Part shown: piece after piece, positions 1,320 through 59,813 of the stretch
Layout: the number at the start of each line of letters is the position of its first letter
How positions within the stretch are numbered: position 1 is the first letter of the stretch
From: Escherichia coli
Lineage (GTDB): Bacteria; Pseudomonadota; Gammaproteobacteria; Enterobacterales; Enterobacteriaceae
Length of the DNA stretch: 64,000 nt
Assembly (NCBI RefSeq): GCF_044324875.1
Contig: NZ_CP172185.1
Reading direction: 5' to 3' (one strand)
Notes under the pieces: model-generated
What the model was told of the DNA's origin: nothing
Seen by the model: the letters and a program-made list of their open reading frames with translations, nothing else
The model's database searches: none
Made by a program: the position numbers and the translations under genes

Positions 1320-4300
1320 TTATCCTTTAAAGCAACGGCGGATCACCACAAAGAACACTGGCACGAAGAAGATTGCCAGCAACGTTGCAGAAACCATCCC
1401 GCCCATTACCCCGATACCCACTGCGTTCTGCGCGCCACTGCCGGCACCGTTACTGATAGCTAGCGGTAATACGCCGAGAATAAAGGCGAGAGAGGTCATC
1501 AGGATAGGACGCAGACGCATACGTACTGCCATTAGTGTCGCTTCAACAACACCTTTACCCTCTTTCTCCATGAGATCTTTAGCGAACTCAACAATCAATA
1601 TAGCGTTTTTAGCCGACAAGCCAATTGTCGTTAGCAAGCCCACCATAAAGTAGACGTCATTTTTTTGATTAAAGAGTGTCGCCGCCAGTAGCACGCCGAC
1701 AATCCCTAACGGCACGACCAACATAACCGAGACAGGAATTGACCAGCTTTCATAGAGTGCAGCAAGGCACAGGAAAACAACCACAAAGGAAATTGCTACC
1801 AGAGCGGGAGCCTGGTTTCCCGATAAGCGTTCCTGATATGACATACCCGTCCAGTCATAACCAATGCCAGCTGGTAATTGTGATGCAAGGTTTTCCATCA
1901 ACGCCATGGCATCGCCGGAACTGGTTCCTGGCGCGGCTTCCCCCTGAATCTCCATTGACGGCAGACCGTTGTAGCGCTCCAGTCGCGGAGAGCCATACAC
2001 CCAATGTGCAGTGGTAAAGGCCGAGAATGGTACCATTTCGCCGTTGGCGCTGCGGACATAAAGTTTATGGACATCTTCTGGCAGCATACGGAATTTGGCA
2101 TCCGCCTGAACATACACCTTTTTCACGCGACCACGGTCAATGAAGTCGTTAACGTAAGTCCCACCCAACGCCGTTGAAATGGTCTGATTGATGTCAGAAA
2201 GTGAAACACCTAATGCCTGCGCCTTTTCCTGGTCAACTTCCAGTTTAAACTGCGCGGTGTCTTCCAGACCATTAGGACGCACGCTGACTAAGCTGGCAGG
2301 ATGTTGCGCCGCCATACAAAGCAACTGGTTACGGGCCTGGGTTAGGGCATCGTGACCCAGCCCAGCCTGATCAATTAACTCAAAGTCGAAACCCGTTGCC
2401 GTGCCCAGTTCAACAATGGCTGGCATATTGAATGGAATGACAAAACCGTCGCGGATCTTGCCCAATTCCATTTTGGCACGATGGATTACTGCTTCCGCAC
2501 TGTTTTCGTCACCACTACGCTCTTCCCACGGTTTCAGACTGACGAAGGCCATACCGGCGTTTTGTGCCTGGCCGCTGAAGCTAAAGCCGTTAACCGTAAA
2601 GACACTTTCAACGTTCGCTTTTTCGTTCTTCAGATAGTAATCCGTCACTTGATCCAACACTTTTTGCGTCCGCTCTTGCGTCGCGCCAGCGGGTAACTGA
2701 ATCATGGTCAGAAAGACACCCTGATCCTCTTCAGGTAAGAAGGAAGACGGAAGGCGTAAAAACAACACCACCATTCCTGCAACAATCAGCGCATAGATCA
2801 GTAAATATCGTCCTGTGGAACCGAGGATTTTGCCGACGCTGTTGGTGTAGTGGTTAACGCTATGATCGAAGGTGGTATTAAACCAGCCGAAGAAACCGCC
2901 CTTATTTTCGTGATGCTCAGCAGAGACGGGTTTGAGCAGTGTTGCACATAACGCTGGGGTAAGAATCAATGCCACCAGAACAGAAAGCGCCATTGCCGAA
3001 ACGATGGTGATAGAGAACTGGCGGTAAATTGCCCCAGTAGAACCGCCGAAGAATGCCATTGGAATAAATACCGCTGACAGCACCATCGCGATACCCACCA
3101 GTGCGCCCTGGATTTGCGACATTGATTTTTCCGTCGCTTCTTTTGGCGGGAGCTTATCCTCCATCATCACGCGCTCGACGTTCTCCACCACCACTATCGC
3201 ATCATCGACGAGCAGCCCGATGGCAAGCACCATCCCGAACATCGTTAGTGTATTGATGGAGTAACCAAAAGCGGCGAGGATGGCAAACGTCCCTAACAAC
3301 ACTACGGGTACCGCAATGGTGGGGATCAGCGTTGCTCGCATATTCTGCAAGAACAGATACATCACCAGGAACACCAGCATAATGGCTTCGAACAGCGTTT
3401 TTACCACTTCGTGAATAGAAAGCTGGACGAATGGCGTGGTGTCATAAGGGTAGAGAACCTTCATTCCCTGTGGGAAGAATGGCTGTAATTCCGCCAGTTT
3501 TGCCTTAATGGCTTTCGCGGTATCGAGAGCATTCGCGCCGGTTGCCAGCTTAATACCCAGGCCCGCCGCCGGTTTTCCGTTGATGCGAGCGATAACGTTA
3601 TAGTTTTCACCGCCAAGTTCAACCCGTGCGACATCTTTCAGGCGTACCACCGAGCCGTCACTGTTTACGCGCAGGGTCACTTTGCCGAATTCTTCCGGAT
3701 TTTTTAACCGCGTTTGAGCAATAATCGAGGCATTCAACTGTTGCCCTGGTAACGCTGGCGTTCCGCCCAACTGTCCGGCAGCGATCTGGTCGTTCTGTAC
3801 CCTTAACTGGTTAATCACATCAACCGGCGTCAATTTATATTTGTTTAGCAGATCGGCGTCCAACCAGATACGCATCGCATACTGTGCGCCGAAAAGTTGT
3901 ACGTCACCGACGCCATTCAGACGGCTAAGCGTATCTTTAACGTTAGAGGCCACATAGTCCGAGATATCGTCCTGTGTGGTGCCTGGGTTATCAGAGACAA
4001 AGCCCGCCACCATCAAATAGCTGCTACTGGACTTTTCAACACTGATCCCCTGCTGCTGTACCTCCTGCGGCAGCAACGGCGTGGCGAGCTGGAGTTTGTT
4101 CTGCACCTGCACTTGCGCGATATCTGGATCGGTCCCAGACTGGAAGGTAAGGGTAATTGTCACGCTACCGGCGGAATCGCTGGTGGAGGACATATACATC
4201 AGGTTATCGATACCGTTCATATTCTGTTCGATAACCTGCGTCACCGTATCCTGCACGGTCTGCGCATCAGCGCCCGGATAGTTTGCTGAAACAGAAACCG

Positions 4301-26100: not shown

Positions 26101-26999
26101 TGGCGAAAACTCGTGGTGATTCAACACAGTCATCACCTTTCCCGACAACGGAGCGCATTAACTTCCGTGGCTGGCCGGACGCCCAAATACGATGCGCAGA
26201 GTGCTGGTTCTGGGGGCAAAAATTCGGGCGCATTGACAGTGATATCACCATTTCTGGCAATACATTAACGCTGACCAATGGACTGATTGATACTGGTTTC
26301 TCGCGGCTTACTGCCGATGGTGAATGGGTTAACAATCCGGGAAATGAACGCACCTCGCTGAAAGGAAAACTGCGTGGGCAGAAAATTGATGCCGCCGCAG
26401 AATTTTTTGGTGTCACGACGCCCATACGCCAGTCGTCATTTAATGTGGATTACGATTTACACTGGCGCAAAGCACCCTGGCAACCAGATGAGGCGACGTT
26501 GAATGGCATCATTCATACTCAACTGGGCAAAGGCGAAATTACCGAAATCAATACCGGACATGCCGGGCAATTGCTGCGCTTATTGAGCGTTGATGCCCTG
26601 ATGCGTAAGCTGCGTTTTGATTTCAGAGACACCTTTGGTGAAGGGTTCTATTTTGACTCCATTCGCAGCACCGCGTGGATTAAAGACGGCGTTATGCACA
26701 CCGACGACACGCTGGTGGATGGCCTGGAAGCGGACATTGCCATGAAAGGGTCGGTAAATCTGGTGCGTCGCGACCTGAATATGGAAGCGGTTGTCGCACC
26801 AGAGATTTCTGCGACGGTGGGCGTGGCTGCGGCTTTTGCGGTTAACCCCATTGTTGGCGCGGCAGTGTTTGCAGCCAGTAAAGTGCTGGGGCCGCTGTGG
26901 AGCAAAGTCTCCATTTTGCGCTATCACATTTCGGGTCCGCTGGACGATCCGCAAATCAACGAAGTGTTGCGCCAACCGCGTAAAGAAAAAGCGCAATGA
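23199..26999 (+). CDS. yhdP: AsmA-like inner-membrane-anchored periplasm-spanning protein YhdP
   Basis: ORF track 23199..26999 (1266 aa), GTG start; N-terminal TM anchor (LLLTGAALVVIAALLVSGL); size and position match YhdP. Confidence 0.93.
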   Translation: MRRLPGILLLTGAALVVIAALLVSGLRIALPHLDAWRPEILNKIESATGMPVEASQLSASWQNFGPTLEAHDIRAELKDGGEFSVKRVTLALDVWQSLLHMRWQFRDLTFWQLRFRTNTPITSGGGNDSLEASHISDLFLRQFDHFDLRDSEVSFLTPSGQRAELVIPQLTWLNDPRRHRAEGLVSLSSLTGQHGVMQVRMDLRDDEGLLSNGRVWLQADDIDLKPWLGKWMQDNIALETAQFSLEGWMTIDKGDVTGGDVWLKQGGASWLGEKQTHTLSVDNLTAHITRENPGWQFSIPDTRITMDGKPWPSGALTLAWIPEQDVGGKDNKRSDELRIRASNLELAGLEGIRPLAAKLSPALGDVWRSTQPSGKINTLALDIPLQAADKTRFQASWSDLAWNQWKLLPGTEHFSGTLSGSVENGLLTASMKQAKMPYETVFRAPLEIADGQATISWLNNDKGFQLDGRNIDVKAKAVHARGGFRYLQPANDEPWLGILAGISTDDGSQAWRYFPENLMGKDLVDYLSGAIQGGEADNATLVYGGNPQLFPYKHNEGQFEVLVPLRNAKFAFQPDWPALTNLDIELDFINDGLWMKTDGVNLGGVRASNLTAVIPDYSKEKLLIDADIKGPGKAVGPYFDETPLKDSLGATLQELQLDGDVNARLHLDIPLNGELVTAKGEVTLRNNSLFIKPLDSTLKNLSGKFSFINGDLQSEPLTASWFNQPLNVDFSTKEGAKAYQVAVNLNGNWQPAKTGVLPAAVNEALSGSVAWDGKVGIDLPYHAGATYNVELNGDLKNVSSHLPSPLAKPAGEPLPVNVKVDGNLNSFELTGQAGADNHFNSRWLLGQKLTLDRAIWAADSKTLPPLPEQSGVELNMPPMNGAEWLALFQKGAAESVGGAASFPQHITLRTPMLSLGNQQWNNLSIVSQPTANGTLVEAQGREINATLAMRNNAPWLANIKYLYYNPSVAKTRGDSTQSSPFPTTERINFRGWPDAQIRCAECWFWGQKFGRIDSDITISGNTLTLTNGLIDTGFSRLTADGEWVNNPGNERTSLKGKLRGQKIDAAAEFFGVTTPIRQSSFNVDYDLHWRKAPWQPDEATLNGIIHTQLGKGEITEINTGHAGQLLRLLSVDALMRKLRFDFRDTFGEGFYFDSIRSTAWIKDGVMHTDDTLVDGLEADIAMKGSVNLVRRDLNMEAVVAPEISATVGVAAAFAVNPIVGAAVFAASKVLGPLWSKVSILRYHISGPLDDPQINEVLRQPRKEKAQ

Positions 27000-27072
27000 T
27001 TTGACGAGGGCGCGTAATTGCCCCAATCTCATATGATAATCGTTGCCAAAGGCCAACGAGCCAGAACATAAC

Positions 27073-27107
27073 CGTAGGCCGGACAGGGCGTTCACGCCGC
27101 ATCCGGC
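27073..27107. repeat. REP (repetitive extragenic palindromic) element
   Basis: cgtaggccggacagggcgttcacgccgcatccggc is the reverse complement of the canonical GCCGGATGCGGCGTGAACGCC...CCGGCCTACG REP motif; lies between yhdP and tldD. Confidence 0.85.
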
Positions 27108-27139
27108 AGCCGTAAAAAATCCTCTACTGCAGTAACTAA

Positions 27140-28600
<1,461 letters not shown>

Positions 28601-58883: not shown

Positions 58884-59813
58884 ATGCAGTTACAGAAATT
58901 AGTCAATATGTTTGGTGGTGATCTCACCCGTCGTTATGGGCAAAAGGTGCATAAGCTGACGCTGCACGGCGGTTTTAGCTGCCCTAACCGTGACGGTACC
59001 ATCGGGCGTGGTGGCTGCACATTCTGTAATGTTGCCTCGTTTGCCGATGAAGCGCAGCAACATCGTTCCATTGCCGAACAACTGGCGCACCAGGCGAATT
59101 TAGTTAACCGCGCTAAACGCTATCTGGCCTACTTTCAGGCGTATACCAGCACCTTTGCGGAAGTTCAGGTGCTGCGTTCTATGTATCAGCAGGCGGTGAG
59201 CCAGGCCAATATTGTCGGTTTGTGTGTTGGTACCCGCCCGGACTGCGTGCCGGATGCAGTGCTGGATCTGCTTTGTGAATATAAAGACCAGGGCTACGAA
59301 GTGTGGCTGGAGCTGGGGCTACAAACCGCCCACGACAAAACGCTACATCGCATCAACCGCGGCCATGATTTTGCCTGTTATCAGCGTACAACCCAGCTGG
59401 CACGTCAGCGCGGGCTGAAGGTGTGTTCCCACTTAATTGTCGGCCTGCCTGGCGAAGGGCAGGCTGAATGTTTGCAAACGCTGGAGCGAGTGGTTGAAAC
59501 CGGCGTGGACGGCATAAAGCTGCATCCGCTGCATATTGTGAAAGGCAGCATTATGGCGAAAGCCTGGGAAGCGGGGCGTTTGAACGGTATTGAACTGGAG
59601 GATTACACGCTCACTGCCGGAGAAATGATTCGCCATACGCCACCGGAAGTGATCTACCACCGCATTTCCGCCAGCGCCCGTCGCCCGACGTTGCTTGCTC
59701 CGCTGTGGTGCGAAAATCGATGGACGGGAATGGTCGAGCTGGATCGTTATCTGAATGAACATGGCGTACAGGGATCGGCGCTGGGACGTCCGTGGCTACC
59801 TCCAACGGCGTAG
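58884..59813 (+). CDS. yhcC: Radical SAM family protein YhcC
   Basis: ORF track 58851..59813; start set at MQLQKLVNMFGGDLTRRYGQKVHKLTLHGGFSCPNRDGTIGRGGCTFCN (309 aa; Cys-rich radical-SAM-like motif). Confidence 0.88.
   Translation: MQLQKLVNMFGGDLTRRYGQKVHKLTLHGGFSCPNRDGTIGRGGCTFCNVASFADEAQQHRSIAEQLAHQANLVNRAKRYLAYFQAYTSTFAEVQVLRSMYQQAVSQANIVGLCVGTRPDCVPDAVLDLLCEYKDQGYEVWLELGLQTAHDKTLHRINRGHDFACYQRTTQLARQRGLKVCSHLIVGLPGEGQAECLQTLERVVETGVDGIKLHPLHIVKGSIMAKAWEAGRLNGIELEDYTLTAGEMIRHTPPEVIYHRISASARRPTLLAPLWCENRWTGMVELDRYLNEHGVQGSALGRPWLPPTA

Follow-up and report, generated by a model that had tools for sequence, protein, structure and literature searches.

A single Y-type REP element between yhdP and tldD in Escherichia coli

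INTRODUCTION

REPs are among the best-known repeats of bacteria, and the element between malE and malF is the paradigm of a REP that acts as a stabilizer of the 3′ end of an mRNA. Published accounts describe REP-containing mRNAs as stabilized, with decay that depends on ATP and on RhlB with PNPase (osmC and yghA), and they also describe REPs as facilitating Rho-dependent termination. When located in 3′ untranslated regions, REP stem-loops appear as abundant metastable decay intermediates (Romero 2014). A REP is defined by a GTAG tetranucleotide and a bulged hairpin, the K-12 strain has a total of 584 REPs of which 84 are single, and variation in BIME copy number from strain to strain is established (Ton-Hoang 2012; PMC3333891). 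At the DNA level, the insertion sequence IS1397 has a published specificity for palindromic units.

The element examined here and its locus are already known. In K-12, the region between yhdP and tldD was named the REP245 cluster (Romero et al. 2014; PMC4681348; reference sequence U00096.2), and it is also a BIME-2 gyrase site. We analyzed a 64-kb stretch of E. coli DNA (hereafter the window) in which a first-pass annotation had marked a REP in the gap between these two genes as a potential recombination or transcript-stability site. Our analysis offers several refinements: the probable position of the element in the tldD leader, an Escherichia-specific insertion that carries it, a split between alleles with one and seven REPs, and natural insertions of IS1397.

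RESULTS

The window carries one canonical Y-type REP

Window positions 27073 to 27107 read cGTAGGCCGGACAGGGCGTTCACGCCGCATCCGGC, and the reverse complement of this sequence differs from the classic REP consensus GCCGGATGCGGCGTGAACGCCTTATCCGGCCTAC at only 2 of 34 positions. This is the sole match to the REP consensus in the 64 kb, and no match was found in any of 100 dinucleotide-preserving shuffles. We also built a covariance model from 18 aligned REPs of the Y, Z2, and short types taken from other genomes (K-12, cryptic-clade Escherichia, E. whittamii, Escherichia sp. E1V33, and several Citrobacter), leaving out the window copy. When the 64 kb were scanned with filters off, the model scored positions 27072–27112 of the plus strand at 55.4 bits (E = 1.1e-15), whereas the runner-up match reached 9.4 bits (E = 0.77).

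The element at 27074–27107 is a canonical Y-type REP, or palindromic unit, present as a single copy that consists of GTAG followed by a 30-nt imperfect palindrome. A fuzzy scan fits the Y reference, along with a near-identical reference labelled Z1, and does not fit Z2. The consensus derived from this locus is likewise the Y consensus. In sequence, structure, location, and copy number, the features that define a Y-type REP were all found, namely the stem-loop palindrome, the GTAG, the stem mismatch, the Y consensus, an extragenic location, and high copy number. Two of these, the GTAG and the stem mismatch, are needed for binding and processing by the REP-associated transposase TnpA_REP (RAYT). 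The coordinates of the element and its neighbors are collected in Table 1.

The REP belongs to a high-copy dispersed family. A 43-nt query spanning it matches no fewer than 40 sites per genome in 5,425 E. coli genomes, and 1,490 records contain the exact 43-mer around the window REP with an identity of at least 99%. Neither fuzzy scans nor an unfiltered covariance-model scan of the 64 kb found a second REP. Loose core matches near positions 59249 and 62845 were rejected as REPs, as they lack the palindrome and are apparently ordinary coding sequence. One REP per 64-kb window seems low for E. coli when set against the 584 REPs of K-12.

The first-pass annotation had called this a canonical REP, and the 2 mismatches in 34 positions, the absence of matches in 100 shuffles, and the score of 55.4 bits agree with that call; a formal motif scan thus excludes a poor match to the consensus. 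Its view of the REP as an ordinary feature was also sound, since this is a common dispersed repeat at a catalogued locus, and the gap in which it placed the REP is indeed there, as 155 bp between the two open reading frames. It had given the limits as 27073–27107, of which the end is correct, whereas the start lies one base outside the GTAG. The orientation that it gave, reverse complement, holds in the older Stern/Gilson convention but not in the GTAG-first convention, under which the REP lies forward on the plus strand and is sense for both yhdP and tldD (Ton-Hoang 2012; PMC3333891).

Table 1. Features in and around the yhdP–tldD gap of the window
Feature	Position	Strand	Basis or comment
yhdP CDS, 1266 aa	23199-26999	+	ORF list; annotation in NZ_CP042899.1
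Conserved block after yhdP stop	27001-27035	+	Conservation and transfer of K-12 TSS
Escherichia-specific insertion, ~80 bp, with REP	27040-27122	+	Alignment with REP-free Citrobacter gaps
Small second palindrome, TCGTTGCCAAAGGCCAACGA	27040-27059	+	Sequence, MFE and centroid folds
Extra-palindromic motif, GAACATAACC	27064-27073	+	GTAG side; precedes every Y REP of the K-12 BIME-2
Y-type REP	27074-27107	+	Consensus match, inverted repeat, RNA and DNA folds, covariance model
GTAG of REP	27074-27077	+	Foot of stem, 5′ side
Outer stem	27078-27083/27102-27107	+	6 bp
Internal loop 3x3, CAG/GCA	Between outer and inner stems	+	RNA fold
Inner stem	27087-27090/27095-27098	+	4 bp
Apical loop TTCA	27091-27094	+	RNA fold
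3′ flank AGCCG	27108-27112	+	Conserved in Y REP alignment
Putative tldD leader segment with CTACT...AGTAG inverted repeat	27124-27146	+	Conserved in Escherichia and Citrobacter
tldD CDS, 481 aa	27155-28600	+	ORF list; annotation in NZ_CP042899.1

The annotated record NZ_CP042899.1 is identical to the window over the stretch compared.

The hairpin and its maintenance

The arms of the inverted repeat span 27078–27091 and 27094–27107. The RNA hairpin of the plus strand has a predicted free energy of −20.5 kcal/mol (z = −2.06), and the DNA hairpins of the two strands come to about −10.5 kcal/mol (z = −1.7 and −1.0). The hairpin is therefore modestly more stable than shuffled sequence. When the gap is folded as a whole, no unusual structure is observed (z = −0.70).

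Eleven Y REPs from this locus yield the consensus CCGTAGGCCGGATAAGGCGTTCACGCCGCATCCGGCAGCCG. The window variant, GGACAGGGCG, has two differences from it, T13C and A15G, both at bulge positions. T13C is unique to the window and breaks a seventh outer pair that the remaining ten copies retain. Single-occurrence Y-type REPs of E. coli resemble the window copy in having the GTAG and the 30-nt mismatched palindrome, an extragenic location, and Y sequence. The window copy departs from them by the T-to-C and A-to-G changes in the bulge region, which turn a 2x2 internal loop into a 3x3 loop.

Across the 11 Y REPs, 97.5% of the hairpin cells are paired, whereas control pairing with slid partners gives 21%–54%. 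Compensatory changes, from C-G to U-A, are seen at two pairs. This maintenance of pairing is supportive of a conserved hairpin but falls short of proof, since the aligned sequences are related. In a cryptic-clade genome labelled E. coli SCPM-O-B-8794, two Y copies have GGTG...CACC in place of GGCG...CGCC. This double compensatory change is common to neighbors in the array, a pattern suggestive of concerted evolution.

A GC-rich hairpin located 78 nt beyond the stop codon of yhdP might be taken for a Rho-independent terminator of this gene. However, no T or U tract follows the stem on its 3′ side on either strand, the plus strand reading AGCCGTAAAAAA, and a terminator scan called nothing at the REP. 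The element thus lacks what defines an intrinsic terminator, and its sequence is that of a dispersed repeat family member. We consider this explanation extremely improbable.

A conserved block upstream of the REP is probably the tldD promoter

The yhdP stop codon ends at 26999, 74 nt upstream of the REP GTAG. Directly after it, TTGACG (27001–27006) is separated by a 17-bp spacer from CAATCT (27024–27029). The sequences TTTGACG and AATTGCC.CA..CTC are conserved in all of the ~45 enterobacterial gaps examined, and the 30-nt block TTTGACG...AATTGCCCCAATCTCA is common to the gaps of Escherichia, Citrobacter, Kosakonia, Kluyvera, Phytobacter, Pseudocitrobacter, Pseudescherichia, and Salmonella arizonae.

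RNA data are available for the K-12 allele (PMC4681348). At the REP245 cluster, a class I transcription start site (TSS) was detected by dRNA-seq (RVS_(I)-3390444), along with a sense RNA of 348 nt (3390096–3390444) that was equated with the candidate sRNA ECS187. An antisense signal (3390096–3390395) and a class III forward TSS (3390096) were listed as well. This antisense signal, at 3575–3874 of our K-12 locus L004, covers the REP array only and starts where the sense RNA ends. It could reflect real transcription, or it could be an artefact of palindromic multi-copy reads.

We take the offset from U00096.2 to U00096.3 at this locus to be +1978, a value that agrees with the coordinate of the aaeR–tldD spacer. 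Given this offset, the K-12 class I TSS maps to gap position 36, which is G27035 of the window and lies 6 nt after CAATCT. The K-12 sense RNA extends 2 nt beyond the stem foot of the final REP. The conserved block at 27001–27035 is probably the tldD promoter, since its conservation coincides with the K-12 class I TSS. By homology to the K-12 start site, the REP of the window would occupy +40 to +73 of a tldD leader of 120 nt. In the K-12 allele, the leader measures 394 nt. Reads that originate from REPs elsewhere and map to several places could have raised the RNA signal seen over the K-12 cluster.

A scan with the consensus sigma-70 promoter made no call at the 27001–27035 block and none at the REP. 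The −10 region of the block, CCCCAATCT, is poor for sigma-70. This sequence loosely resembles the sigma-32 consensus. When TTGACG-N14-CCCCAATCT is compared with TTGAAA-N13-15-CCCCATNT, there is no exact match, and we set the sigma-32 reading aside as a lead only, with no literature support. The one mention of tldD that was found in this connection concerns the aaeR–tldD spacer. A preprint on yhdP contains nothing on co-transcription.

The candidate sRNA label raises the alternative that the REP encodes an independent small RNA, either naRNA4-like or ECS187 itself. The K-12 REP245 cluster is listed under the latter name (PMC4681348), although the supplements of Shinhara 2011 that were searched gave no details of ECS187. 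The window matches the Rfam naRNA4 model (RF02564) with 31.4 bits (E = 0.0033), but this is far under the gathering threshold of 59.5 bits. The two have the REP hairpin in common, both as sequence and as fold, yet the window has one hairpin of a 77-nt model and is not a member of that family. This partial similarity is presumably accounted for by the derivation of naRNA4 from REP325. Most REP-associated RNAs of this kind are regarded as metastable decay intermediates (Romero 2014), and the K-12 RNA reads as a leader fragment, not a separate gene, because its 5′ end is the tldD TSS. An independent small RNA is therefore very improbable.

Other parts of the gap

A small palindrome, TCGTTGCCAAAGGCCAACGA, sits just upstream of the REP and, like it, inside the Escherichia-specific insertion described below. 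E. whittamii has TCATTG...TAATGA at this site, which is apparently a compensatory change, and Escherichia sp. E1V33 has a 7-bp deletion there but retains a palindrome. The reading of the left flank (27029–27063) as a collapsed Z2 REP was not supported, since alignments of equal or better quality were obtained with 496 of 2,000 shuffles. This flank shares only GAACATAACC with the linkers of BIME-2.

Just upstream of the tldD start codon, the CTACT...AGTAG inverted repeat folds as a weak hairpin that may influence ribosome access. The open reading frames across the gap are merely mechanical (29–48 aa, plus one of 189 aa in antisense), and nothing speaks in their favor.

Single-REP and seven-REP alleles among E. 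coli genomes

Of 5,426 complete E. coli genomes, all but one (5,425) contain this region. The K-12 locus, its REP245 cluster or BIME-2, is orthologous to that of the window and has the same flanks, but its gap measures 429 bp rather than 155 bp and contains seven alternating Y and Z2 REPs. It equals the window sequence plus three Y-Z2 units of ~91 bp, for a difference of +274 bp. The counterparts of the window REP in the K-12 array are its terminal Y REPs, which are likewise flanked by GAACATAACC-GTAG on the left and AGCCGTAAAAAA on the right. A BIME-2 is made of tandem alternating Y/Z2 pairs, an arrangement that is found in the K-12 allele but not in the window. The window thus carries a single-REP allele, either collapsed or never expanded, of what in K-12 is a seven-REP BIME-2, and its REP is the anchor of this expansion or collapse polymorphism.

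A query composed of the unique left flank, Y, and Z2 (coverage cut-off of at least 80%) found the Y+Z2 BIME-2 junction at this locus in 1,853 of 5,426 genomes (34%). We then measured the gap in 60 genomes taken at even steps down the ranking. Single-REP length was observed in 39, a length of exactly +274 bp in 20, and IS1397 in the remaining one. No intermediate gap lengths were found in this sample, in which the O157:H7 genomes have the single-REP allele. These data prompt the tentative suggestion, which we regard as doubtful at present, that the gap is a stable two-state locus, with about one-third of genomes having the seven-REP BIME-2 and most others having one Y REP. One of the 5,433 yhdP–tldD junction matches is in a record typed as a plasmid.

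The seven-REP allele bears on another explanation for the element, namely that its main role is topological and is exerted as DNA, through binding and cleavage by gyrase. According to Sutormin et al. (2019; PMC6379681), the tldD–yhdP BIME-2 of K-12 (307 bp) has 35, 13, 3, and 10 gyrase cleavage sites (Cfx, RifCfx, Micro, and Oxo, respectively). It is one of two notable BIME-2 hot spots described there, and Y REPs are reported to be cut by gyrase more often than Z2 REPs. In K-12, the seven-REP array ranks with the strongest chromosomal sites of gyrase cleavage that are independent of transcription. The window, however, has one Y REP and no array. Among the intervals of single-REP size (17–37 bp) that were inspected in the table of PMC6379681, one has 1 cleavage site and the others have 0, and strong gyrase binding is described for BIME-2 and atypical BIMEs rather than for lone REPs. 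The lone REP is probably not a strong gyrase site, and a mainly topological role in the window is unlikely.

The REP lies in an Escherichia-specific insertion

A degenerate pattern for the start of tldD was used to collect 50 enterobacterial loci for comparison. REP-free gaps of 72–106 bp were found in Kosakonia, Kluyvera, Phytobacter, Pseudocitrobacter, Pseudescherichia, and several Citrobacter. When the Escherichia gaps are aligned with REP-free Citrobacter gaps of 75–77 bp, they show an insertion of ~80 bp at about 27040–27122. The REP is part of this Escherichia-specific insertion. E. whittamii and Escherichia sp. E1V33, whose flanking genes are ~92% identical, have one Y REP at the position seen in the window, and the cryptic-clade genome mentioned above (L011; ~94% identical) has five REPs.

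REP pairs are located elsewhere in the gaps of C. youngae/portucalensis, C. werkmanii/braakii, C. koseri, and Salmonella arizonae. Because these pairs occupy different positions in the gap, they were acquired independently. Four loci of the C. youngae/portucalensis group (L015, L016, L038, and L049) have a Y+Z2 pair at an insertion point unlike that of Escherichia. Compared with empty-site Citrobacter, CAGT is found on both sides of the pair in L016 and L049, and the pattern is less clear in L015 and L038. The CAGT flanks in L016 and L049 could be a target duplication or microhomology.

IS1397 has inserted into the REP more than once

Three genomes, JNE12-007, BH100 MG2014, and IAI39, have IS1397 between yhdP and tldD. 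Reading of the junctions places the insertion sequence in the apical loop of the orthologous REP in all three, and its orientation is the same in each. In JNE12-007 and BH100, IS1397 follows ...GGCGTTCAC with a duplication of TCAC, whereas in IAI39 it follows ...GGCGTT with a duplication of GTT. The two different target duplications and junctions indicate at least two independent insertion events. These loop insertions, with duplications of 3 or 4 bp, agree with the published specificity of IS1397 for palindromic units; the window itself is without the IS. They are natural evidence of in vivo recognition of the sequence as a REP. The yhdP–tldD junction has no full-length match in six genomes, and IS1397 explains three of the six.

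The suggestion of the first-pass annotation that this is a recombination site is well supported by the Y+Z2 junctions in 1,853 of 5,426 genomes, the alleles that differ by +274 bp, and the IS1397 copies in the loop.

DISCUSSION

Our best explanation is that the window has a single Y-type REP that came in with an ~80-bp Escherichia insertion between the tldD promoter and the ribosome-binding region, and we hold this to be very probable. In this position the REP would be transcribed twice over, as part of yhdP read-through RNA and as part of the tldD 5′ leader. A GC-rich RNA hairpin would be expected to stop 3′-to-5′ exonucleases, with PNPase needing RhlB to pass REPs. Transcripts that end or are cut downstream might then be trimmed back to about 27109, which, by homology to K-12, would leave a stable leader fragment of ~75 nt (27035–27109). 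The hairpin may also protect the upstream yhdP message and may cause mild attenuation of read-through into tldD via Rho. As DNA, the same sequence would be a substrate for RAYT/TnpA_REP, for the transposase of IS1397, and for the recombination by which BIME-2 arrays expand or collapse.

Among these effects, a barrier at RNA 3′ ends combined with a possible mild attenuator is, by analogy with described REPs, the most likely consequence at this locus, and we judge it somewhat probable. The transcript-stability role proposed in the first-pass annotation stands by homology only, through the K-12 sense RNA that runs from the class I TSS to 2 nt beyond the final REP. The REPs that serve as mRNA 3′ stabilizers at malE-malF, osmC, and yghA are similar to the one described here in that each is a transcribed hairpin located between co-directional genes and is expected to be a barrier to exonucleases. 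The window REP differs from them by also lying downstream of the next gene's own TSS, within the predicted 5′ leader.

The main alternative is that the REP is a selfish or neutral relic, left by RAYT-driven dispersal or by collapse of a BIME-2, with no measurable effect on yhdP or tldD. The element is missing from many related genera in which the promoter and leader blocks are conserved, E. coli tolerates one or seven REP copies or an IS1397 of 1.4 kb at the same spot, and the window copy has a substitution that breaks a pair. However, the hairpin is kept, with compensatory changes, in Escherichia that are ~92%–94% identical in the flanking genes, and the K-12 RNA ends coincide with the REP foot. 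Moreover, a neutral origin and an incidental effect on RNA are compatible with each other. The REP could be functionally neutral at this locus, and we regard the relic explanation as possible but not the expected one.

Taken alone, a single REP matters little. The practical value of the present comparison is that the element is placed in the putative tldD leader, downstream of a conserved candidate promoter, and that natural hits by IS1397 are documented. It is also clear that the picture derived from K-12, with seven REPs, a gyrase hot spot, and a leader of 394 nt, is not valid for most E. coli. With the seven-REP allele, the tldD leader is longer by 274 nt of REP hairpins. If the gap is indeed a two-state locus, and if the gyrase hot spot is missing from the single-REP allele and the fate of its tldD leader is different, then strains would have heritable differences in TldD expression and in local chromosome topology, the latter next to the mre-rng-yhdP region. 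The gap offers a natural series of alleles with 0, 1, 5, or 7 REPs, or an IS, that is suited to testing the effects of REPs on a downstream gene and on local supercoiling.
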